DNA from: a virus
Taxonomy: Duplodnaviria > Caudoviricetes
DNA: 63,229 nt
Direction: 5' to 3' (one strand)
IMG/VR virus record: IMGVR_UViG_3300046004_000392
Span: 1 to 63,229 of that record
A program made the position numbers and the translations under genes. Shown piece after piece: positions 141 through 63,229 of this stretch (within the stretch, counting starts at the first letter, position 1; every line of letters starts with the position of its first letter). The notes under the pieces were generated by a model that saw only the letters and a program-made list of their open reading frames with translations, made no database searches and had not been told where the DNA came from.

Positions 141-170
141 GGACAACATAACATCTGCGTTACCTTGTCC
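141..170. repeat. 12-6-12 palindromic element, copy 1
   Basis: GGACAACATAAC ATCTGC GTTACCTTGTCC. Confidence 0.85.
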
Positions 171-267: not shown

Positions 268-291
268 AAAAAAACCGCCCGAAGGCGGTTT
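268..291 (-). terminator. Intrinsic terminator ending the leftward 3-gene unit
   Basis: Minus strand AACCGCC-TTCG-GGCGGTT followed by a T run. Confidence 0.85.
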
Positions 292-1570: not shown

Positions 1571-1600
1571 GGACAACATAACGGCCTTGTTATACTGTCC
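1571..1600. repeat. 12-6-12 palindromic element, copy 2
   Basis: GGACAACATAAC GGCCTT GTTATACTGTCC. Confidence 0.85.
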
Positions 1601-7188: not shown

Positions 7189-7588
7189 ACTAGACCTGAG
7201 TCAAGCAATTGACTTAACAGGTATTGCGGCGGAAGCACCCACGCCAGAACCAAAGGCATCACAACTGCCTGAACCAAAAGGCTATCGAATCTTATGTGCT
7301 GTACCCGATGCAGATGATAAATACGAAAGTGGTATTGTCAAAGCGTCTGATACTAAACGTATTGAGGAAAATGGCACCGTAGTATTGTTCGTGCTAAAAA
7401 TGGGCGACCTTTGCTACAAAGAAGAAGCGAAGTTCCCTACAGGTGCGTGGTGTAAAGAAGGCGACTTTGTCCTTACCCGTGCATACGCAGGTACTCGTTT
7501 TAAAATCCACGGAAGAGAATTCCGCATAATCAACGATGATACTGTCGAGGGTGTAGTAGATGACCCACGCGGTTATACTCGCGCTTAG
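7181..7588 (+). CDS. groES: Co-chaperonin GroES-like protein
   Basis: PKGYRIL...SGIV...YAGTRFKIHGREFRIINDDTVEGVV matches the Cpn10 pattern. Confidence 0.85.
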   Translation: MSKLDLSQAIDLTGIAAEAPTPEPKASQLPEPKGYRILCAVPDADDKYESGIVKASDTKRIEENGTVVLFVLKMGDLCYKEEAKFPTGAWCKEGDFVLTRAYAGTRFKIHGREFRIINDDTVEGVVDDPRGYTRA

Positions 7589-9666: not shown

Positions 9667-10581
9667 ATGGCTATTTCACGCGCACAGCTCCTTAAAGAGC
9701 TACTACCAGGTCTGAACGCTTTGTTCGGTTTGGAATACAAACGTTACGGCGAAGAGCATCAAGAGATTTACGAAACTGAATCTTCTGAGCGTTCATTCGA
9801 GGAAGAAACAAAATTGTCTGGCTTCTCAGCAGCTCCTGTTAAAAACGAAGGCAACGCCATCGCTTATGACAATGCTCAAGAAGCTTGGACAGCTCGCTAC
9901 ACACACGAAACTATCGCTTTAGGCTTCAGCTTGACTGAAGAAGCAGTAGAAGATAACTTGTATGACACTTTATCTGCTCGCTACACTAAAGCATTAGCTC
10001 GTGGTATGGCTTACACAAAACAAGTTAAAGCAGCTAACGTATTGAACAACGGTTTCAACACCTCTGGTTCATACAACGGCGGCGACGGTGTGCCACTATT
10101 CAGTGCATCTCACCCACTTGTTACTGGCGGTACAAACAGCAACATTCCAACCACTCCAGCAGACTTGAACGAAACTTCATTGGAAAATGCAGTTATTCAA
10201 ATCGCAGCTTGGACTGACGAACGTGGCCTATTGATCGCTGCTAAACCTCGTAAATTGGTTGTTCCACCAGCATTGCAATTCGTTGCAACTCGCTTGTTGG
10301 AAACTGAATTACGTGTTGGCACTGCTGACAACGATATCAACGCATTGAAAAACAACGGTTCAATCCCAGAAGGTTACGCAATTAACCACTTCTTGACTGA
10401 CTCAAATGCTTGGTTCTTGACAACAGACGTACCTAACGGTATGAAACACTTTGTACGTACTCCATTAGCAACATCAATGGATGGCGACTTCGATACTGGT
10501 AACGTTCGTTATAAAGCACGTGAGCGTTATTCATTCGGTTGGTCTGATCCATTAGGTATGTACGGTTCAGCTGGCGCTTAA
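9667..10581 (+). CDS. Major capsid protein
   Basis: MAISRAQLLKELLPGLNALFG start and RYKARERYSFGWSD end; biased codons; AGGAG SD; terminator follows. Confidence 0.9.
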   Translation: MAISRAQLLKELLPGLNALFGLEYKRYGEEHQEIYETESSERSFEEETKLSGFSAAPVKNEGNAIAYDNAQEAWTARYTHETIALGFSLTEEAVEDNLYDTLSARYTKALARGMAYTKQVKAANVLNNGFNTSGSYNGGDGVPLFSASHPLVTGGTNSNIPTTPADLNETSLENAVIQIAAWTDERGLLIAAKPRKLVVPPALQFVATRLLETELRVGTADNDINALKNNGSIPEGYAINHFLTDSNAWFLTTDVPNGMKHFVRTPLATSMDGDFDTGNVRYKARERYSFGWSDPLGMYGSAGA

Positions 10582-53887: not shown

Positions 53888-54132
53888 TTGTTTGCTCCGT
53901 ATTTAGTCTGTAACAACAACTCGCAGTAGTGCAATGCTTTCTTGATGTCCTCGGCGCCGTTCTTAGCGTGGTGTCGGCATACATACTTAACTATGTTGCC
54001 CTCTAAGAAGCCTAAGTTATTCGCGGCAATAAACTCAACCGGTTGTATCTTCATGCTTGCATAGTGGCTTCCGCCTATCTGTTTAGCTAATGCGTTTTCT
54101 TCTTCCCTCATGTCTGTCATTCCGTCGCTCAT
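53884..54132 (-). CDS. DUF3310-family protein (T7 gp1.7 nucleotide-kinase-like)
   Basis: QIGGSHY...IQPVEFI...FLEGNIVKYVCR...EDIKKALHY. Confidence 0.8.
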   Translation of the reverse strand: MSDGMTDMREEENALAKQIGGSHYASMKIQPVEFIAANNLGFLEGNIVKYVCRHHAKNGAEDIKKALHYCELLLQTKYGANK

Positions 54133-54367
54133 TCCATTCTCCTATCATAAACATACATAACATACCTAACCCAAATGCTTGCCAGTAGCACTGAATGTAC
54201 TCAATTACCATATTTGCCATTAGCTTCGTCCCTCGCATCTCGTTCTGCTTCTTTCTCTAGCGATAAGTAAATCCCCTCAATCACCCTACCTTTTTCTGCG
54301 GGGGGTAGGTCATGTGTTGCTAGTTTGGTAATAAAATTCCCTAACTTAATATAATGTTTCTCTTTCA

Positions 54368-54766
54368 TTACCACGCTCCAAACATATTCATGCTACTACC
54401 TATTGCTACCGTACCACGTCTAGTTGTGCGCTTGTTTGGTTCGGGGTTTACGTATGGTCTATCCACCAATCGTATTACTCTAACGTGTGGTGGCACCTCT
54501 TCTTCTACTTGTTCCGTAGGTTGTTCCCGTTTGATATACGGTGTGCCTTCGTTGTAAGCGTATTGACGTCTGCCTTGTGTAGTAACCTTACGTCGTACTA
54601 AGAAACCACGTAGCGCAAGCCATTCCATATAGTGCTTCATCTTTACTACGGGAATGTTCAATTCAGTTGAACACGTTATCATTATCACATCTTTCTTGCC
54701 CTGTATAAATTTGCATATACGGTCTCGGCTTTCTTCTACTTCAGCATCAAACTCATTTAATCGCAT
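54368..54766 (-). CDS. Hypothetical protein, possible winged helix
   Basis: GAGG SD; LALRGFLVRR wing-like pattern. Confidence 0.55.
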   Translation of the reverse strand: MRLNEFDAEVEESRDRICKFIQGKKDVIMITCSTELNIPVVKMKHYMEWLALRGFLVRRKVTTQGRRQYAYNEGTPYIKREQPTEQVEEEVPPHVRVIRLVDRPYVNPEPNKRTTRRGTVAIGSSMNMFGAW

Positions 54767-54915
54767 AGTGTTACTACCTCGTGTCGTAATAAATATTTGT
54801 CTAGGTATTCGTATAGTTCTGCTTCTAAAACTCCAACCAACAGATTATAAACGTGCTCGTCGTTTACGCTTTCGATTAGTTTGCATAATCGCTCAAGTCT
54901 TTCTATGTCAAACAT
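54757..54915 (-). CDS. Small hypothetical protein (52 aa, MFDIERLERLC...)
   Basis: Hand-translated; GGAG SD. Confidence 0.5.
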   Translation of the reverse strand: MFDIERLERLCKLIESVNDEHVYNLLVGVLEAELYEYLDKYLLRHEVVTLCD

Positions 54916-55243
54916 TTTGGTTCTCCTCGAGGCTATCGTGGGGCTCTGACCAGTTCCCTGCCACGTCCATCAATTTGGCGATTAAATCTACGTTTGTCTC
55001 GTTGATAACGTAGGTTAAGCCACCTGCTTTATTTATTTTGTGTAGTTCGCGCAGTTGTAATTCGGTTGGTTTGTTTGTGCCAGCTTTACATTCGATGCCA
55101 ACAAACTTACCGCGTAGACAGCAGACAATGTCGGGCACACCACTGCGACCGAAGCCACCAGTGGCAGGAAAGAAATAGTACGCGTCGTTAGCCTTGAGTA
55201 GTTTGACTACTGATGCCTTGACTTTTGACTCGGGTGTTGCCAT
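54908..55243 (-). CDS. VRR-NUC nuclease
   Basis: PESKVK...GVPDI...IECKAG...PTELQ; start MATPES after GGAG. Confidence 0.85.
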   Translation of the reverse strand: MATPESKVKASVVKLLKANDAYYFFPATGGFGRSGVPDIVCCLRGKFVGIECKAGTNKPTELQLRELHKINKAGGLTYVINETNVDLIAKLMDVAGNWSEPHDSLEENQNV

Positions 55244-55277
55244 TGATGTACTCCATAAACATAACGAATGTTTACTA

Positions 55278-55305
55278 AGTATACTTGACGGAATGGGGGT
55301 GTCAA
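55278..55305 (-). promoter_or_regulatory. Sigma70 promoter for middle/replication genes
   Basis: TTGACA-N16-TATACT. Confidence 0.5.
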
Positions 55306-55373
55306 TAGGCTTACAAGATTTATTTTTAGGTACGTCTTCCACCCAAATAGGGTGTTACGTTTGTGATAGGCAT

Positions 55374-55413
55374 AAAAAAAGGACAACATAACAGTTAAGT
55401 TACATTGTCCTTT
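55374..55413 (-). terminator. 12-6-12 palindrome copy 3 (55381-55410) doubling as intrinsic terminator
   Basis: Minus strand AAAGGACAATGTAAC-TTAACT-GTTATGTTGTCC-T7. Confidence 0.7.
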
Positions 55414-55533
55414 GGTGGATAGAAAAGCAGATTACACGCTATCCTCGTGGTGGAGAGCAGACCTAACCTATGCAGGTTAAGGTGCTAGGCAAGCAACACA
55501 CATCTGCTATATGTATTCGTTCTTGCCCGTTGG

Positions 55534-56412
55534 TTATCCTACTATGTACATTATGTTGTCTTCGAACTTTACCCCTATATCTTGTATAGGGTCGTTCTCC
55601 TCAGCAATTTTAAGTACAGCTATCTGTTCTTGCATACGAATTGGCATCTCTTCATAGTTTCGGTATCGCATAAGCGGTATGTTGTTTTCCTCATACGTGT
55701 GCCTAGCGTCATACATAAACGATACTGCTCGTATAGTGTTGTCAGCTAGTACCTTTACCACGTACCCACTACGTTCTTTACCTGTGGCAGTATTGTACTT
55801 GCTTACCGCCTTCAGCGACTTACCTGCTAGGTATCTATAATACATATGCATTTGGTTCTCGTCTACTTTACACGTTGCAGGCATAGGCAGTACCTTGCCT
55901 TGAATATGTGACTCAACTATCCACTCATGTATATCGTTACCATAGTAACTTGACACTTGAGACAACGAACTGCGCCACCGGTACTCGTGGTTATCATACT
56001 CATCACGTACCCTAGTAATTAACCTAGCACAAATCTGCCCTACGCTAGGTGGTGCAAATGCTTTAACGACGTGCTTCAATGCCGTTGTGGTATTAGTAGT
56101 TACAACCGTATTAGGAGACCCACGTTCTTTCTGTATGTGTTCAGACCTTATAACGTATGCGTCCGGATAGGTACCATCAGATTGCCTACGGCCTGCTTCA
56201 TGTTGATACGAAATCTCACCTACTCGGTCAGCGTCTTGTGTTACCTCAAACCCCGTAGCCCACTTAGTGATTGAACCTGTTTCATCACTAACAGCGTTGC
56301 GAAACTTGGTTGCGTGGAACTCAAACAATGGGCGCTTCATCTGTATCATTGTTACCAACTCTTTAAGCTGCGGAACTATTTCCGTAGCCTGTCCTAAATT
56401 TATTGCAGCCAT
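55534..56412 (-). CDS. Hypothetical early protein (292 aa)
   Basis: AGGAG SD. Confidence 0.75.
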   Translation of the reverse strand: MAAINLGQATEIVPQLKELVTMIQMKRPLFEFHATKFRNAVSDETGSITKWATGFEVTQDADRVGEISYQHEAGRRQSDGTYPDAYVIRSEHIQKERGSPNTVVTTNTTTALKHVVKAFAPPSVGQICARLITRVRDEYDNHEYRWRSSLSQVSSYYGNDIHEWIVESHIQGKVLPMPATCKVDENQMHMYYRYLAGKSLKAVSKYNTATGKERSGYVVKVLADNTIRAVSFMYDARHTYEENNIPLMRYRNYEEMPIRMQEQIAVLKIAEENDPIQDIGVKFEDNIMYIVG

Positions 56413-56432
56413 ACAACTCTCCTAAAATAATG

Positions 56433-57323
56433 TTACCAATTAAACTTCGATAAGATATCGTCTACTTGTGTCTTGACTTCTTGACGTGTGTGTTCGCTAT
56501 CACGTAGCGCTTCTGCGCTAAGTCCATTAACCACAGTAGCTAACTGTTTACGTGCATCTTCAATCTTCGGGTCTTGCGTGATGTTCAAATGCTTTAACTC
56601 CAGGCATAACTCTTGTGCATTGGTTACTAACGTATCACGAAAGATTTTCTTCTTACTCTCAGCACCGCTGTCATCATCTGCTAACCTATCACTCATGCGA
56701 CGTAAGCAATCCTCTAGGCGCCACGTTACATCAGCCATCGCGTTATGTACTCGGTCATTGACACTCGCATTGAACTGTTCTTTCAACTCCACGATAGCAT
56801 CATTACCCACATCAACTCGGAAGTCACCTGCCACAGGCACAGGTAAGAACGAGTACTTGAACTCGAACTGTTTAGCGACTTGTGCCTTATCGGGATAGTC
56901 TGATTGCACAAACAAATCACCTAGGGCGTGCGACGCTTGGACAATAAGGTCATCAAACTTTTCTAAAAAGTCGTCTATCATATCCTTACGCATAGTTTCG
57001 TAATTAGATAGAGCTTGCTTGTACTCAAAGAACTTAGCCGATGGTAGCAGACGTTGTCCTTTGTCAGACCACGGAAGGGTCTGTGATATATTCCACGCAC
57101 GAATACGTGAGTCGAACTTGTTGATATCGTGTAGTACTTTAGTACCTGCAAACAAATTCTTTTGGTACTTACCTGCGTTGGTTGTCGTAGAATTTACTAC
57201 ATCTACCATCTCGGTCGTGGGTCGGTCAATCTTAGTACCAGTCCACGAACGGATTGATAGGTCTACTAACATAGAACTGCTTGATATACTGACGATATCT
57301 ACTGCTTCATTTTGGTTACTCAT
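56433..57323 (-). CDS. DUF3150-like helical early protein
   Basis: LSIRSWTG...TLPWSDKGQRLLP...DYP; follows AAA/VWA genes. Confidence 0.55.
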   Translation of the reverse strand: MSNQNEAVDIVSISSSSMLVDLSIRSWTGTKIDRPTTEMVDVVNSTTTNAGKYQKNLFAGTKVLHDINKFDSRIRAWNISQTLPWSDKGQRLLPSAKFFEYKQALSNYETMRKDMIDDFLEKFDDLIVQASHALGDLFVQSDYPDKAQVAKQFEFKYSFLPVPVAGDFRVDVGNDAIVELKEQFNASVNDRVHNAMADVTWRLEDCLRRMSDRLADDDSGAESKKKIFRDTLVTNAQELCLELKHLNITQDPKIEDARKQLATVVNGLSAEALRDSEHTRQEVKTQVDDILSKFNW

Positions 57324-57342
57324 TTTATTTCTCCTTATGGTT

Positions 57343-57372
57343 GGACAACATAACTACTCTGTTACATTGTCT
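57343..57372. repeat. 12-6-12 palindromic element, copy 4
   Basis: GGACAACATAAC TACTCT GTTACATTGTCT. Confidence 0.85.
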
Positions 57373-57542
57373 AAGATAGTTTGATTACGGACTATGTACT
57401 CATGCGCTAAGTATTGTATTGCTTGCGTATAGGAAGCGTTAATACCTAGTGAGGCCCGCATATGTTGAATTACTACATCAAGTACTTTTACTGTACCTGC
57501 GTTTACTGATACACCTACACGACCATCGCTTGTTCTTGCCAT
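57354..57542 (-). CDS. Small protein, ribbon-helix-helix-like
   Basis: RVGVSVN strand then two helices; GAGGAG SD. Confidence 0.5.
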   Translation of the reverse strand: MARTSDGRVGVSVNAGTVKVLDVVIQHMRASLGINASYTQAIQYLAHEYIVRNQTILDNVTE

Positions 57543-57543
57543 C

Positions 57544-57717
57544 TTAATTCTCCTCTAATACATCTTCGATAAAATAATAGCTTTCGGCAGGCTCTAGGTC
57601 TGCGTTAGCTTCGTACGTCTGTACTGCAAGACGTTGTGCTTCTTCGGGCGAGTCTGCTTCTACCTGCATAGGGTATATCTCTGACTGCACGATTGTTACT
57701 AACCATTTCTGTTTCAT
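57544..57717 (-). CDS. Small protein (57 aa, VEADSPEEA motif)
   Basis: Hand-translated; AGGAG SD. Confidence 0.65.
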   Translation of the reverse strand: MKQKWLVTIVQSEIYPMQVEADSPEEAQRLAVQTYEANADLEPAESYYFIEDVLEEN

Positions 57718-57727
57718 GACTTACTCC

Positions 57728-58135
57728 TTAGTATATATCCCAACATAACGAACTTACTGGGTACAGCATTGACGTAGCTTCGCCATCACCACCATACCTA
57801 GTGTCTATATCACCCGACTCCTCACCTATACGCACGAAACACCAACTCACGCAGTTATACTTCTCTGCAAACTCCTCAGCTAAATCGAGTAGCTTGTGAT
57901 GTGCTATTACGTCGGAGTAACTGTCGTACCACTTGACGTCCTCGGCTTCAAATCTAACGTGTAGTTTGTTATCGTTAAACTCTAAACTTTGTGGCTCGTC
58001 CTCTCGACAGTGGTCGTAATCGGGGTCTAGCTTGTACTGCACCTTAAATTGGTCGTACACTTGCTGTTCTGTGAATACAATTAAGTACCCCACTTGACTT
58101 CTATATCCCATATCTAACTCCTTAAATTTACCCAT
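57728..58135 (-). CDS. Hypothetical protein (MGYRSQV...VKWY...FVRIGEE)
   Basis: Coupled ORF. Confidence 0.7.
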   Translation of the reverse strand: MGKFKELDMGYRSQVGYLIVFTEQQVYDQFKVQYKLDPDYDHCREDEPQSLEFNDNKLHVRFEAEDVKWYDSYSDVIAHHKLLDLAEEFAEKYNCVSWCFVRIGEESGDIDTRYGGDGEATSMLYPVSSLCWDIY

Positions 58136-59337
58136 TATGTTTTAAGATGTAACACTTTGCCTGTATCGCTTGTGTATGATGGGTTATCTACCACACACCA
58201 TATAACTGGATTAGCTACGTCAGACCAGTCGCCCTCACCGCCGTAACAACCATCAGTTAGAACGATAGTGATTTCCGGATTCAAGCTGTGCTCTTTCATG
58301 TACGCAGGTATACAGCTTGGGTCAGTACCTCCACCACCTCTTGGTTTCGTCGTATCCAATAGCGAGTCATATTCGGTTTCGGTATAGAACTCATGCCCTG
58401 CCACACGTGTATCCCAATACAGTAAGTCCAGTCCTTCGGGCATCACTTCGTCACAGATAGATTTAATCTCTGTCATAAACGTATCGTGAATTACTCCACC
58501 GATGGAACCCGACGTATCGTCAGCCACACAGATTCGGCCGACCTTGTGGTTAATGTTTTGTGGTAGGTAAATATCAGCACCTAGGTGTCGCTTACTAAAC
58601 TTGCGCCACGAACTATCGCCTGTACCTTTACACGTAACCTTAACTAAGTCGCGTAGCAATTCTGTCCACGGCACCTGTGGCTCAACTAGGCTTTGCATAC
58701 CACGTGGTACGTCGCCACCCATCTTACCTGCCAACTGCTTACCTTGATGTAGTGCTTGCGTAACGCGTGAACCTAATTCCTGTTTCTCCTCAGGAGTTAA
58801 TTCTTCTGCCCCTTCAAAGTCGTGGTCATCAAATTGGTCATCGCCCAGTTCGTCTTTTGCGCGTGGGTTCTGACCAGTTCCATATTCTTTGACAAGCAAA
58901 TCAAATACTTGCTGTGCGTCCATACCACGATACTTCTCGTCGAGTAAGCCCATACGTGACCCATCGTCATTCTGAGGAAATGCTATCTCTGTTTCGTTTG
59001 GGTCTTGGTCTACTAGCTGTAAGTTAATCACGTAGTCACACGCACAGTTCGCAAGCATAGGGTCTTTGTCGTAAAGATGTTTCCACGTAGTAGTGTGTCG
59101 CCACGCAATGTGCGATAGCTCATGTAATACTACAAACAACATTTGCTTATCGTTCATCTTATTGACAAACTCTCTACCGTAGATTACGTCCCTACCATTA
59201 GTACATGCTGTTGGTATGTCGTCGCTTACCGATACCTTACCTATCATAGTAAGCCCCGAGTAGAAGCGGAATAGTTTGGACTGCATGATTGATACATGCG
59301 CCCTCTCTACCTTTTGTTCTGCTGTTAATGTTGCCAT
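58135..59337 (-). CDS. HExxH metallopeptidase-like + VWA domain protein (DUF2201-like)
   Basis: TACTNG, LHELSH, MIDAS DTSGS, GGGGT, LTDG. Confidence 0.85.
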   Translation of the reverse strand: MATLTAEQKVERAHVSIMQSKLFRFYSGLTMIGKVSVSDDIPTACTNGRDVIYGREFVNKMNDKQMLFVVLHELSHIAWRHTTTWKHLYDKDPMLANCACDYVINLQLVDQDPNETEIAFPQNDDGSRMGLLDEKYRGMDAQQVFDLLVKEYGTGQNPRAKDELGDDQFDDHDFEGAEELTPEEKQELGSRVTQALHQGKQLAGKMGGDVPRGMQSLVEPQVPWTELLRDLVKVTCKGTGDSSWRKFSKRHLGADIYLPQNINHKVGRICVADDTSGSIGGVIHDTFMTEIKSICDEVMPEGLDLLYWDTRVAGHEFYTETEYDSLLDTTKPRGGGGTDPSCIPAYMKEHSLNPEITIVLTDGCYGGEGDWSDVANPVIWCVVDNPSYTSDTGKVLHLKT

Positions 59338-59353
59338 ATTGTTTCTCCTAAAT

Positions 59354-59383
59354 GGACAGTATAACTAGACTGTTATGTTGTCC
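59354..59383. repeat. 12-6-12 palindromic element, copy 5 (inverted)
   Basis: GGACAGTATAAC TAGACT GTTATGTTGTCC. Confidence 0.85.
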
Positions 59384-60453
59384 TAAAATAAATACTGATT
59401 AGCACGAGCCCAATCCACGAACGCTTGTGAACTAAACAAGATACGTTTCTTTTCCTCGTTCTTACTTGCGGTCAGACAGAATACAGACTGCAACTCTTTC
59501 GGAGTGCGTTTCATATAGTCGAACCACTTCCCTATCGTATCCCTCTGTACACGTTGAACTGCACCGAACGCTAAGATACACAAGGCGGCCGGATTGTTAG
59601 GTACGATTGCCTCACTTGGTTTATCAATGATACTGTCCCACGTAGGTAAGCTGTCGGCTATATCAATGAACGCATACAAGTCACGCGCACCACTAGCACC
59701 GATAGTACCTTCCAATGCACACAGTAACGCTTGCGTGTTGTAATCATTCTTGTTCTTAACGATGTTACTTGCCAACTCTAGTGAGCGTGGCGATACGAAG
59801 CTACGTTGTGAGAACTTAGGGTTGTAGATGTACTGATTGTCCGATTGTGATGGGTCACGATACGAACCTAGTACTTGAGGGAACTCACGAACCCACGCTA
59901 GTACCACAGGTGCAATCTTGTCCATACCCCAACTCAACCATTCCTCACTCGTAGGCTTGCGTACATTGAGTACACTCAGACGGTTTCGGCTATGACTCGC
60001 CATCACGTCGCCCACTGCGTCAGTCGTCAAGTTACCTGCTGTGATAACCACGCTATCCTTGTGCAGGGTAAGACCACTTATCCTTCTGGGGTTTGTCAGC
60101 AAAGGGTGTAACATATTCTTAACTGCCGACGCACCTTTGGTAAACTCGTCAAGCATGATGCACAACGGCTCGTCAGTGTGAAAGCCCCAATGTTCGTTCG
60201 GGTACAACTTGGTCGTGCCTGTTTCTCTGTCGGGCATAGGTATACCTAAGTCGCCCAACTCTGTGTTGGGTACGTCAATATAGATAGCACGCATACCTAG
60301 TCGGTCAGCGATTGATTGGTGCATTGCTGTTTTACCAACTCCGGGCTCGCCCACTAAGTGGAACGTGTTGCTTGCGCCTACGGAAACGATTAAGTCTGAC
60401 GCTTCACGTAGGCTAACCTGTGTGTCAAGGTTGATATTCATTTGGTTGCTCAT
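59383..60453 (-). CDS. MoxR-type AAA+ ATPase
   Basis: GEPGVGKT, MLDEF, TAGN, NR finger, SPRS. Confidence 0.85.
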   Translation of the reverse strand: MSNQMNINLDTQVSLREASDLIVSVGASNTFHLVGEPGVGKTAMHQSIADRLGMRAIYIDVPNTELGDLGIPMPDRETGTTKLYPNEHWGFHTDEPLCIMLDEFTKGASAVKNMLHPLLTNPRRISGLTLHKDSVVITAGNLTTDAVGDVMASHSRNRLSVLNVRKPTSEEWLSWGMDKIAPVVLAWVREFPQVLGSYRDPSQSDNQYIYNPKFSQRSFVSPRSLELASNIVKNKNDYNTQALLCALEGTIGASGARDLYAFIDIADSLPTWDSIIDKPSEAIVPNNPAALCILAFGAVQRVQRDTIGKWFDYMKRTPKELQSVFCLTASKNEEKKRILFSSQAFVDWARANQYLF

Positions 60454-60464
60454 TTTTATTATCC

Positions 60465-60848
60465 TTAGTCTTGTTTTGTAAATGTGTTTAAGTACGCAAG
60501 TGTACCCAGTACTGCAGGTACGTCAGCAGGTGTGCACTCATAGTCTATGTCTGATTTGTTGATTAGTACTTTGCCCTCATAGATTGTAATGAGTAGTCCG
60601 TACATAGTGGCTAGGTCAGCCATTATCTTGCTTGCTTCAGCGATACCATCAGATACGATTTGCACGTTAGATGGGCGACCTTGTTTCTTAGCTTTCATCT
60701 GTTTAGCTTTAAGTGCTTTGCGTTTCATGTCATGCACGATGGTCACGTGACAATCAACTGCGTCAGCGATTTGCTGTGCCGTTAGTTTCGGGTGTGTTAC
60801 TAACATGTCACGTACCATTTGAGTTTTGTTAATGCCTGCTACTTTCAT
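60465..60848 (-). CDS. HTH DNA-binding protein
   Basis: LTAQQIADAVDCHVTIVH. Confidence 0.6.
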   Translation of the reverse strand: MKVAGINKTQMVRDMLVTHPKLTAQQIADAVDCHVTIVHDMKRKALKAKQMKAKKQGRPSNVQIVSDGIAEASKIMADLATMYGLLITIYEGKVLINKSDIDYECTPADVPAVLGTLAYLNTFTKQD

Positions 60849-60871
60849 TTTGTTTCTCCTTAGTTTTGAAT

Positions 60872-62092
60872 TTAAAGGACAACATAACGACGTGTTATGA
60901 TGTCTTCCTGCTCTACAAGGTACTTGTTACACAACACATACTTCTCGTTCAGTGTTGATGGGAGTACACCTTGCGATACTTCCACTTTCTTAAAGATTAA
61001 GTCTGCATACACGTACTTGATTACATCTATGATGTAGTTCTCTATCGTGGTGCCACTCACTCGCCACTCCAGTTCGGGTAGGTTTACCTTGCCAAACATC
61101 GTGTCTACGGCTATCTCTGCGTCATGATGTACTTGCTTCGCATAGCTTGAACCATTAGTTACCACGCGCAACATCATCTTGCGGACAGTTTCGGCATTGT
61201 CCGAGAATAGATTAGATATGATGGACAAGAAGTCCTCGGTGTTGTGCCCGTCTGTATAGTTAGGTTCTCCGTACTTCGCATTAGTAAACTTACTTGAGTC
61301 ACCTGTGCGTTTCATGTTCTCCGCTAGGTGTGACAGATTGGATAGGTTAGGTGCGCCTACCTTGTTCTCAATTAGGTTTCGTAGTGTGTAGCTACCATAG
61401 AAATACCCAAAGTAGGTTGCGTGCGCAGGGTCGCCTGCTTCTTTCGCATGCATTTTCTCTCTGTGTTCGTTCACCTGTTTCACGTAGTCGTCTATCACGT
61501 TCGGAAAGAAATACGCTATCTCGGGCAAAGTGTACGTAGATGACATACTTGTCATGACAAATGTCGCGTCTAAGAATGGTTTAATATTCTTGCGTATAGC
61601 GTTCATCACCTTGCGGTCAGCCTTATACTCGTAAAGCGTAGGTGCGTTGTCTAACATAGGCTCGGCAGTCTGCCAGTCCTCGCTCACTTGTAACCACAAG
61701 CCACCATCGGGTATGACAAACTCACGACCTTTTACTGTCGTGTATATCATGCGTCTACGTTCCAACCGAACCTTACCGAATTTGCGTGGTAACACTGCTT
61801 CCATAAAGTTAGCAGTAGATGGGCTTAACCAACCACCACGATTTAGTTTGATGGTGTTGTCGGGATAGATAGTTACGCAAGGTGTTTCGTACAGCACAGC
61901 CGACACGCTATCCACAAGTGGGTCGTGTTCAATCTTGCATTGCGTGTATGCCCTGTTAGTGCCGAGTGGTTTAAGTTCGGGTGTTCTACCACGTATCGGT
62001 TTCACTCTGTTGAAGTGCGCTAGTGCCATTTCGTGTGTTTCAAAGTGCGACGACCTAACACCTGCGCTAGATATAAATGTGTTCCAACTCAT
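60872..62092 (-). CDS. Hypothetical early protein (~406 aa)
   Basis: Likely start MSWNTF after AGGAG. Confidence 0.75.
   Translation of the reverse strand: MSWNTFISSAGVRSSHFETHEMALAHFNRVKPIRGRTPELKPLGTNRAYTQCKIEHDPLVDSVSAVLYETPCVTIYPDNTIKLNRGGWLSPSTANFMEAVLPRKFGKVRLERRRMIYTTVKGREFVIPDGGLWLQVSEDWQTAEPMLDNAPTLYEYKADRKVMNAIRKNIKPFLDATFVMTSMSSTYTLPEIAYFFPNVIDDYVKQVNEHREKMHAKEAGDPAHATYFGYFYGSYTLRNLIENKVGAPNLSNLSHLAENMKRTGDSSKFTNAKYGEPNYTDGHNTEDFLSIISNLFSDNAETVRKMMLRVVTNGSSYAKQVHHDAEIAVDTMFGKVNLPELEWRVSGTTIENYIIDVIKYVYADLIFKKVEVSQGVLPSTLNEKYVLCNKYLVEQEDIITRRYVVL
60877..60905. repeat. Palindromic element, copy 6 (5-nt spacer, inside ORF 3' end)
   Basis: GGACAACATAAC GACGT GTTATGATGTCT. Confidence 0.75.
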
Positions 62093-62110
62093 ATTACTCT
62101 CCTTAGTTTC

Positions 62111-62140
62111 GGACAACATAACGTGCTTGTTACATTGTCC
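62111..62140. repeat. 12-6-12 palindromic element, copy 7
   Basis: GGACAACATAAC GTGCTT GTTACATTGTCC. Confidence 0.85.
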
Positions 62141-62153
62141 TTTGGTTGATGGG

Positions 62154-62360
62154 TTATCCTACTAACCCGAATAAAATACATATTGCTATGATGATACAAA
62201 CTACTGCCACTGCTCTATCCCCTTTGTGTACTTGCGTATCAAATGCTTCACCTGCGAAGTCATCGTCAGTTAATGCACGACCAAATGCTTCCCGACTTGT
62301 GCGTGGGAAATGGTAGTGCTTGCTGTCATGCTGATTGAATTGTGTTTGGTTTCGGTTCAT
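62154..62360 (-). CDS. Small membrane protein (HFPRTSREAFG + C-terminal TM)
   Basis: AGGAG SD. Confidence 0.7.
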   Translation of the reverse strand: MNRNQTQFNQHDSKHYHFPRTSREAFGRALTDDDFAGEAFDTQVHKGDRAVAVVCIIIAICILFGLVG

Positions 62361-62369
62361 GTTGTTCTC

Positions 62370-62516
62370 CTATTGTAAAAACAAATCTAATTGCCGTTGT
62401 TCGCTAGCCAATACGTGTACATCACGACCATCAAACAGGCACTCTAAGTACGCTTTAATCCACCGTATGTTTGCGCGACCTTGCATACGCTTTTGGTGCC
62501 ACTGATACTTGTTCAT
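62370..62516 (-). CDS. Small early protein (48 aa) ending QLDLFLQ
   Basis: Hand-translated MNKYQWHQKRMQGRANIRWIKAYLECLFDGRDVHVLASEQRQLDLFLQ; ATGA overlap with upstream gene. Confidence 0.6.
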   Translation of the reverse strand: MNKYQWHQKRMQGRANIRWIKAYLECLFDGRDVHVLASEQRQLDLFLQ

Positions 62517-62725
62517 GTTCTCACCCCTTTCTGATTAGTTTCTTTGAGAGTACAAAGTGCACTCTCGCTTGTGACGAATTGGTAGTTACCCTTACCATAC
62601 TCTTGTACCACACACCAACTAGCACGCTCTATTACTGCAAGTTCCTCACCGCAGTATAAGCAGACTTTGTAACCTAGTTTGACACGACGACTGTCAATGT
62701 CATGACCACAACGAATACAACTCAT
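62513..62725 (-). CDS. DksA/TraR-type C4 zinc-finger protein
   Basis: CIRCG..I...R...GYKVCLYC; AGGAG SD; first gene after strong promoter. Confidence 0.6.
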   Translation of the reverse strand: MSCIRCGHDIDSRRVKLGYKVCLYCGEELAVIERASWCVVQEYGKGNYQFVTSESALCTLKETNQKGVRT

Positions 62726-62743
62726 AACGCTCTCCTAAATAAT

Positions 62744-62773
62744 GGACAACATAACAAACGTGTTACATTGTCC
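62744..62773. repeat. 12-6-12 palindromic element, copy 8
   Basis: GGACAACATAAC AAACGT GTTACATTGTCC. Confidence 0.85.
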
Positions 62774-62816
62774 GTGGACAGAAACCACAGGGTATAGCTA
62801 CATTACCCCAACCATT

Positions 62817-62845
62817 AGTATACCATAACCACCTACTTTTGTCAA
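62817..62845 (-). promoter_or_regulatory. Strong early sigma70 promoter
   Basis: TTGACA-N17-TATACT with extended TGn. Confidence 0.75.
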
Positions 62846-62869
62846 GCTGATGGCGTTTGTTGTGGGACG

Positions 62870-63102
62870 TTTGTTCTCTTTTGGAACATTGTTCCTTTTT
62901 GGGACAATAGGTATGTGGGTTGGTGTGGGATTGATGTAGCGTGAAGGAACAAATGCGTTCCTTTTTGGAACATTGTAAAATTGAGTGTAAGTTGCTGTTA
63001 TTATTAGTTTATTTATTTTTATTTTATATTATTATTGTATTGTTCCAAATGTTCCGTGCTTTTTAGTGAGAGGCGCCATTTTGCTTTTTTCGCTTTGCAC
63101 TG
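62870..63102. other. Candidate replication origin: GGAACA/TGTTCC repeats flanking an AT-rich tract
   Basis: Non-coding; TTTTGGAACATTGT twice; near-pure A/T run ~62997-63042. Confidence 0.5.
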
Positions 63103-63229
63103 CGCTAGGGTCACTTTGCTTAACTAAACTTTCCAAAATGCCCAAAAAACGAGGGAACAAATGGAACAAAGGAACATTACTGCATAATCAACGAGTTAGC
63201 AGGGAACAATACAAGGAACAATACAAAAC
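63103..63229. repeat. Terminal direct repeat (identical to 1-127)
   Basis: Exact match to the start of the window. Confidence 0.9.

Follow-up and report, generated by a model that had tools for sequence, protein, structure and literature searches.

The described systems that come closest to the element studied here are analogues in layout, not relatives. The element is an imperfect palindrome found eight times in the early region of a Caudoviricetes virus; the window is the whole stretch of DNA analysed, 63,229 nucleotides long, which is the complete virus record IMGVR_UViG_3300046004_000392 of IMG/VR. A literature search, which was not aimed at this phage lineage and excluded paper supplements such as the ESAS and SRU tables, returned no description of this hairpin.

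Two of the analogues belong to mycobacteriophages and, like the third below, are compared here through parts of the papers that describe them. In Cluster K, the extended start-associated sequences (ESAS) have imperfect arms of 17 bp around spacers of 4-13 bp, and are associated with a 13-bp SAS box (PMC3203893, PMC12699233). Like the element of the window, the ESAS form imperfect palindromes whose spacer varies and which stand just ahead of ribosome-binding sites; neither element extends into the structural part of the genome, and in each of them one arm is better conserved than the other and the consensus varies between related phage groups. The function of the ESAS was still unassigned in 2025 (PMC12699233). 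However, the two have no sequence relation, the SAS box is absent here, and the authors of the ESAS found departures in the arms that did not support pairing (PMC3203893), whereas here the upper stem covaries and one copy appears to be the terminator of its operon. The ESAS-like layout, an imperfect repeat directly upstream of a Shine-Dalgarno (SD) sequence, is found at five of the eight copies of the window, and is a likeness of layout only. In Cluster O, 17-bp dyads of the form 7-3-7 are invariant and spread genome-wide, with 34 copies in Corndog (PMC4351075). They share with the present element their dispersal at gene junctions, their phage-specific character, the free bases of their spacers, and the fact that relatives have their own versions. 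The differences are a 12-5/6-12 architecture, a selected internal mismatch, a restriction to a single operon arc, and the inclusion of a terminator. Finally, the PeSL (promoter-early stem-loop) elements of T4-like phages are composites of a terminator and a promoter (PMC4122927): these are also repeated stem-loop modules, intergenic, in early regions, and in some association with gene replacement, but the internal copies of the window have no promoter, and most insertions and deletions lie off the sites.

Two more general parallels are worth drawing. Copy 3 of the element and its counterparts in 10 other loci have the form of an intrinsic terminator, a stem-loop followed by a T-run on the sense strand. 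But the seven other copies of the window have a mismatch and no U-run; and intrinsic terminators are not normally conserved in sequence across a phage family, nor reused within an operon. In the early region of T7, RNase III sites stand in the leader and between the early cistrons of the transcript made by the host polymerase, which ends at the early terminator. A structured element in the leader and between cistrons, in a region that ends at a terminator, is also what we find here; however, the helix is about half as long, its sequence is conserved at the base of the stem, and any cleavage is putative.

One arm of the palindrome, GGACAACATAAC, has eight exact occurrences in the window, at 141, 1571, 55381, 57343, 60877, 62111 and 62744 on the plus strand, and at 59372 on the minus strand. 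The chance expectation is 0.36, and a count of eight was reached in none of 100 shuffles. Each occurrence faces an inverted partner arm, GTTAYNNTGTCY, across a spacer of 6 nt in seven copies and of 5 nt at 60877; the eight spacer sequences are all different. An earlier note, made from the letters of the window, had read these copies as 12-6-12 palindromes with one invariant arm and with no two spacers alike: this description stands for all but the copy at 60877, which is 12-5-12. The note had seen no copy in the late or replication genes and, when the 63,229 bases are searched with the covariance model of the family, only the eight sites are found, with E <= 7e-5, while the next best match has E = 2.3. 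The two ends of the record share 127 identical bases (1-127 = 63103-63229), for a unique length of 63,102 bp, so that features in positions 1-127 are counted twice in whole-window scans. Through this overlap, the copies at 141 and 1571 join those at 55381-62773 in one early arc that runs across the junction, as the note had it; its length is about 9.5 kb, and its genes are on the minus strand.

The copies, numbered from the left of the window, can be followed in the direction of transcription, all being described on the minus strand. Copy 8 (62744..62773; 37.5 bits) belongs to the 5' leader of the main early operon, with its start 44 nt past the -10 box of a near-consensus sigma-70-type promoter (62845..62817, minus strand; TTGACA-17-TATACT with a TG, 11/12), which would start an early transcript carrying copies 8 to 3; an SD follows copy 8 after 7 nt and an ATG (62725) after 18 nt. 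Copy 7 (62111..62140) separates the genes of a 68-aa and a 406-aa protein, with an SD 6 nt after it and a likely start at 62092. Copy 6 (60877..60905), the 12-5-12 form, is upstream of a 127-aa gene, with an SD 15 nt after it. Copy 5 (59354..59383) has its first base in common with the last base of the stop codon of a MoxR-like gene, and is followed after 4 nt by an SD and then by a DUF2201/VWA gene; the invariant arm is on the other side at this copy, as the note had seen, and it is also inverted in three related loci, L011, L012 and L013. Copy 4 (57343..57372) includes the stop codon of a 62-aa gene and is followed after 6 nt by an SD, then by a 296-aa gene. Copy 3 and its T-run occupy 55374..55413: a hairpin (55381-55410) extended to a 15-bp stem, then seven T (55374-55380), with a predicted fold of -18.5 kcal/mol and z of -3.5. 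By its form, copy 3 is the predicted intrinsic terminator of the early operon. Copy 2 (1571..1600) lies just 3' of a G-tract region, and some 40 nt further on there is a TGCTATAAT-type -10 ahead of a 248-aa gene; copy 1 (141..170) lies about 100 nt after a canonical terminator (291..272), directly before the cluster of TTGTTCC repeats that precedes the early promoters.

In the window, and likewise in its close relatives, all copies are intergenic or overlap stop codons only. The five distances to an AGGAG-type SD and the two overlaps with coding ends, at the MoxR-like and 62-aa genes, bear out what the note had said of them. In 86-nt sense RNA, all eight copies are predicted as the minimum-free-energy hairpin, with stems of 11-13 bp, or 15 bp for copy 3. 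Scanned as intrinsic terminators, copy 3 has the required features, copies 4-7 do not, and copies 2 and 8 pass a loose scan only.

An IMG/VR pattern scan and a protein-baited scan yielded 14 loci related to the window: the three close relatives L011, L012 and L013, with 84-94% identity, and 11 others with an ATPase identity of about 55-59%. Palindromes of 29-30 nt that start with NGACA and end with TGTCN are present in all 14, close relatives included; sites ending in GACA...TGTC number 6-9 in each of 13 related phage genomes. The 146,626 bases of nine distant loci (a count that excludes L020 and L023, near-duplicates of L019 and L015) hold 34 hairpins with a GACA core, where dinucleotide shuffles give a mean of 0.17 and a maximum of 2, and where any of the other 255 tetramers takes the place of the core, the search finds at most three sites. 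The confinement to one region recurs in a complete relative of 65,213 bp, where the five model matches are all inside 54009-61952. The covariance model was built mostly from TGAC/TAAC types, and under-detects the lineage of L015: the model search of its record (G004) gave no match, cmsearch gave two sites, and a scan for the outer motif gave seven. Among 596 Gb of prokaryote genomes, the consensus, as distinct from the TAAC variant of the window, is found at about chance level, in 12 stretches, none from a plausible host. The note's proposal of a constrained signal that punctuates the early region is thus supported, and extends to the whole phage family.

The surroundings of the hairpins are also conserved. 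Intercistronic copies of the window and of the three close relatives have an SD 3-21 nt past their end. L017 and L022 match copy 8 in having a 12/12 consensus promoter, the end of which is about 50 nt from a hairpin with an SD behind it; in each of the three lineages examined (window, L017, L022), about 45-55 nt separate a near-consensus promoter from a copy downstream of it. At the other end of the operon, a hairpin with a T-run separates the gene of a 292-aa protein from the next operon in 11 of the 11 loci that extend past the homologue of that gene, namely the window, L011, L012, L014, L015, L017, L018, L020, L021, L022 and L024; L013, L016 and L019 end before the end of the operon, and L023 duplicates L015. 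The terminator that the note had seen in copy 3 and its seven T therefore has its like in every locus of this comparison. Among 80 sites taken on the sense strand, 15 are followed by at least 6 T in 8 positions, and the equivalent preceding A-run is found at only two. The 15 copies with a T-run have 11 G.U against 2 A.C, and 0.80 unpaired positions per site compared with 1.42 in the rest.

Comparing sites within and between genomes divides the element into layers: a conserved lower stem of 5 bp, two mismatch-prone positions, a covarying upper stem of 5 bp, and a free loop of 5-6 nt. In an alignment of 65 sites selected for pairing, in which the four GACA/TGTC pairs are invariant by construction of the search, 34-44% of the distinct rows have no pair at arm positions 6-7. 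Further in, the five pairs of the upper stem covary, with 117 cells in which both sides changed, against 41 in shuffles, and with a pairing of 88%, against 28-44% when the partner is slid. Since these sites were selected for pairing, the test was repeated on 96 sites of 13 genomes, picked by GACA-N19/20-TGTC alone, with the right arms re-dealt 2000 times within each genome. Watson-Crick pairs between the two arms of one site number 396 of 480 at positions 8-12, compared with 371.7 after re-dealing (standard deviation 5.0), and none of the 2000 re-dealings reaches 396. The corresponding number for positions 6-7 is 70 of 192, compared with 85.4, a value as low being obtained in only 4 of the 2000, and a separate comparison goes the same way; these two positions pair less than the cross-pairings do in 9 of 12 genomes. 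The mismatch at positions 6-7 is itself selected. Upper-stem pairing is specific to the site, and a folded single strand is therefore indicated. The spacer is of 5 or 6 nt inside single genomes (window, L011, L012, L017, L018), a variation that would be better tolerated by a hairpin than by a dimer on duplex DNA.

The upper stem comes in flavours, TAAC in the window and L011, GTGAC in L012 and CTGAC in L013, that have changed in concert at most orthologous sites. The genomes that differ in this respect are 85-92% identical, and their loops stay site-specific. Such a concerted change points to a factor that reads the sequence rather than the shape alone. The identity of the 248-aa protein of the window is 89% to L011, 67% to L012 and 64% to L013, an order that follows stem flavour in these three comparisons only. 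Between orthologous sites of the window and L012, the whole-arm identity is 0.75-0.85 and that of the flanks 0.81-0.88: the suspicion that arms evolve much faster than their flanks was borne out only partly, the excess of change being confined to the seven arm positions that are not fixed. In the close relative L010, the inverted copy 5 shares its loop GTGCTT with copy 7, with arms exchanged (7341-7370, 10124-10153), and the loop of copy 5 in the window is different. This suggests that sequence may occasionally be transferred between copies, within the limits of inner stem and loop.

The early arc looks like an immediate-early unit of the host polymerase, since its order is promoter, hairpin, genes, hairpin-terminator. 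The explanation that we favour, with a confidence that is about evenly balanced, is that the element works as an RNA stem-loop, a tag on immediate-early transcripts that probably has a specific factor as its reader. Host RNA polymerase would start at the strong sigma-70-type promoter, transcribe one copy in the leader, then the others between cistrons, a few nucleotides upstream of ribosome-binding sites, and end at the last copy, whose U-run would make the operon's intrinsic terminator. The internal copies would keep the GACA/UGUC lower stem, the paired upper stem and the selected mismatch at positions 6-7 and, having this mismatch and no U-run, would not terminate. The hairpins, once bound by the factor, would control the fate of early mRNA, whether by processing it into stable units, by protecting its ends, or by shutting off its translation or hastening its decay. 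Since the lower stem is fixed across genomes whose proteins are about 55% identical, while the upper stem is specific to each genome and the loops vary freely, the most likely role of the hairpins is to dock a factor, of phage or host, that is specific for both sequence and shape. RNA is the simplest folded strand in view of the context of promoter, SD and T-run; for copies other than the terminator, we infer that the strand is RNA, that the factor exists, and what it does.

Several observations weigh against this explanation. The 65 copies that have no T-run show 24 G.U, 23 A.C and 69 other mismatches: with G.U and A.C equally frequent, they bear no mark of a sense RNA strand. The note had found that arm mismatches mostly become G-U pairs on the mRNA, which is right for the window (11 G.U against 4 A.C), but does not carry over to the family, where 35 G.U against 33 A.C, with 55 other mismatches, show no strand bias. 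The commonest half-site, defined by arm positions 6-8, occurs exactly once per site in 8/8 sites of the window, 7/8 of L011, 6/7 of L012 and 5/6 of L013, and it may be on either arm, in ratios of 1:7, 1:6, 3:3 and 2:3 respectively; a reader of RNA would therefore meet different bases at different sites, and a reader of DNA would not. Copies 1 and 2 lie upstream of promoter regions, in no evident mRNA, as the note had said of them, and L017 and L022 each have one or two copies upstream of their main promoter. The concerted change of flavour concerns paired bases, which are easier to read on duplex DNA than on A-form RNA. In distant relatives, about eight sites are deep within long open reading frames (ORFs), for instance L022:6014-6042 and L014:8204-8232, some of them within the DUF2201/VWA gene. 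Lastly, the RNA of four metatranscriptome runs came as contigs only, with no pile-ups of beginnings or ends reported; these contigs cover parts of the early region, some span copies 3, 5 and 6, and carry-over of DNA may account for them. The dilemma between RNA and DNA that the note had left is thus genuine, and is resolved only in part: readings on DNA stay alive because of the indifference to orientation and of the copies outside transcripts.

The RNA stem-loop explanation has a bolder version, which we consider rather unlikely. The hairpins would be a class tag for immediate-early mRNA: a co-evolving protein, specific for the hairpin, would read the GACA/UGUC base through a groove opened by the mismatch, and act at all copies together, beside each ribosome-binding site and at the terminator, switching off or stabilising the whole class at once. 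The avoidance of pairing at positions 6-7 and the genome-specific flavour of the upper stem would then be a recognition code. The early-mRNA shut-off of T4 is keyed to a sequence; the class tag, if true, would be its counterpart with a structured tag.

An unlikely alternative on duplex DNA is that the copies are operators or roadblocks of a phage regulator that shuts off or insulates the immediate-early unit, the copy at the end of the operon doubling as a terminator. Mycobacteriophages have dispersed operator-like repeats that such sites would resemble. This alternative would account for genome-specific arms around free loops, for a half-site in either orientation, for the copies outside evident transcripts and within ORFs, and for the lack of G.U bias outside terminators; it is also towards DNA-binding proteins that the authors of the ESAS, the closest analogue, were inclined, in the part of their paper considered here (PMC3203893). 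However, half-sites that are read independently are not expected to covary within a genome, as the upper stem does, and a spacer of 5 or 6 nt in one genome leaves them without a fixed spacing, while the centres of the outer conserved blocks are 25 bp apart. The positions relative to promoters are also inconsistent, some copies being at about +45, some upstream and some far from any promoter; the association with a T-run holds in 11 of 11 loci; and a more operator-like repeat, TTGTTCC, with eight distinct copies, already clusters at the early promoters. Arms that covary within a genome, a spacer of variable length and a terminator copy that is universal therefore make a classical operator, bound by a dimer on duplex DNA, unlikely. 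The note had named helix-turn-helix (HTH) and ribbon-helix-helix (RHH) regulators as candidate readers, which fails on their distribution: only the three close relatives have the 127-aa HTH-like protein, and 5 of the 14 loci the 62-aa RHH-like protein, so neither can be the reader for a family in which all 14 loci have the hairpin.

A sub-case of the RNA explanation, and one that we hold to be quite unlikely, is that the copies are RNase III sites, as in T7, at which the early polycistronic RNA would be cut into stable monocistronic pieces. The placement fits this proposal of the note: hairpins stand in the leader, between cistrons and before SDs, with five of the eight copies in intercistronic position, and they have an internal mismatch as single-cut RNase III sites do. 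But substrates of RNase III usually have about two helical turns, and the predicted helices have 11-13 bp (15 bp for copy 3) and do not extend consistently into the flanks. Moreover, an enzyme that reads mostly shape would leave the fixed GACA/UGUC sequence unexplained, and the copies inside ORFs would mean that coding RNA is cut.

The selected pairing, together with a seeming irrelevance of strand and orientation for most copies, also fits a cruciform or single-strand hairpin in the DNA itself, formed for example when the early end enters the cell or is replicated, and read on either strand by a structure-specific protein. A conserved mismatch in the stem is typical of DNA hairpins read by proteins, such as those of transposases and integron sites. 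Yet this is very unlikely: the proteins examined yielded no virion RNA polymerase, HUH or Y1 enzyme, or integrase, there would be no reason for so tight a link to SDs and to the T-run, and the arms are probably short for spontaneous extrusion of a cruciform.

We give almost no credit to recombination sites or homology patches for the shuffling of gene cassettes, whether Xer/dif-like, as the note had suggested, or PeSL-like. The 12-6-12 architecture invites the idea; the first gene after copy 8 is replaced or has an insertion in L011 and L013, from 14-22 nt past the hairpin, and the sequence of L011 upstream of copy 4 diverges exactly at the hairpin. However, only one of three indel loci relative to close relatives touches a hairpin, the others being 130-370 nt away; hairpins do not flank a precise, gene-sized indel at 62353-62512, a stretch with a 48-aa ORF that L011 and L012 lack and in place of which L013 has other sequence. 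The spacers all differ, which would block exchange between copies by a tyrosine recombinase; no recombinase was found among the proteins examined; and the dif-like heptamer TTATGTT exists in the window and L011 only, where other relatives have GTCAC, GTCAG, CTAGG and others, the family-invariant bases being GACA/TGTC. The sole long-range joint among the metatranscriptome contigs (62721 to 55377) is a cross-placement between two copies of the hairpin and no rearrangement.

Other candidates found no support. The internal copies are not composites of the PeSL type, because no promoter-like site accompanies copies 7, 6, 5 and 4; the only promoters are those close to copies 8 and 3 and one that, judged by eye, follows copy 2. 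An N4-type hairpin promoter is not supported either: the 2243-aa virion protein matches the virion-RNA-polymerase PHROG profile only in its N-terminal, non-polymerase part, has no polymerase match in PDB and no DxDGD motif, and gives LPD39 only in Pfam. The integron reading has no support, with no integrase among the proteins examined. As for a mimic of CRISPR repeats, of the kind called Racr or solitary repeat unit in the part of the source consulted (PMC10651486), no arrays of the consensus were found in the 596 Gb of genomes, and the eight loops of the window all differ; at least 120 metagenome stretches with two units 25-45 nt apart are unrelated tandem repeats.

The setting of the element is that of a phage encoding a terminase, a portal, a family-A DNA polymerase, a primase-helicase and the 2243-aa virion protein. 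Among named phages, the nearest relatives, Rhizobium RHph_TM3_14A-like and Pseudomonas KPP25-like phages, are distant, with DNA polymerases 36-38% identical. A megablast search of a phage collection with two 8-10-kb stretches of the window gave no match, and tblastn gave none for the 415-aa early ORF; a Rfam scan of 54000-63229 gave just four matches, all below threshold and at chance level, and a search for tRNAs gave none. The early-arc genes include a MoxR-type ATPase and a DUF2201/VWA metallopeptidase-like protein, both conserved in the family together with a 70-aa zinc ribbon, the 296-aa and 292-aa proteins, and the nuclease-like protein of the next operon.

The zinc ribbon is the product of the first early gene (62513-62725, minus strand) and has the form CxxC-N15-CxxC; it is present in 12 of the 14 related loci, with 34-96% identity. 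Its predicted fold (pLDDT 81.5) has as best PDB matches the zinc-finger region of DksA/DksA2, at a non-significant E = 1.7, and two of the 12 members match Pfam zf-dskA_traR at E = 0.012, below cut-off. It was considered as a binder of the hairpin, but this weak DksA-like resemblance identifies no binder. An extra ORF stands between hairpin 8 and the zinc-ribbon gene in L011 and L013.

Just after terminator copy 3 there is a second near-consensus sigma-70-type promoter (55305..55278, minus strand). The first gene of the next operon (54908-55342, minus strand) is kept in every relative that extends to it, and its nuclease-like product has a weak match to Pfam Hjc (Holliday-junction resolvase), at E = 0.009, below cut-off. 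Since the promoter falls within the listed ORF, the true start of this gene is probably further downstream.

A second repeat family, TTGTTCC/GGAACAA, has 23 matches in the window where 8.3 are expected (52-138, 62889-63046; those of 63154-63221 duplicate 52-119). Eight distinct copies, some of which form short palindromes, crowd the roughly 400 bp that separate hairpin copy 1 from the early promoters, in what looks like a classical cluster of operators or iterons of these promoters. The matching region in L016, L019 and L020 carries TGTTCGAA-type palindromes. In three distant relatives, a conserved non-coding block, GGGAxCGGTCA...CAACG...TAGCT, follows the hairpin upstream of the main early promoter, at L017:1840-1885, L018:3373-3418 and L019:4724-4770; the window has no counterpart of it.

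Dispersed phage-specific palindromes at the junctions of early genes recur, as the ESAS of Cluster K and the dyads of Cluster O attest, and none has an identified reader. Among them, the present element is an informative case: comparison within and between genomes separates a fixed stem base, an obligatory mismatch and a covarying upper stem, and one copy has a known job, that of a terminator, as far as its form predicts. This three-layer anatomy and the link to termination are what the element adds to the known systems. Its covariance model can be used to find it in other uncultured phages. The layout of promoter, hairpin, genes and hairpin-terminator is kept across lineages whose proteins are about 55% identical, and offers a testable handle on how a phage that has no RNA polymerase of its own may mark, or time, its first transcription unit.

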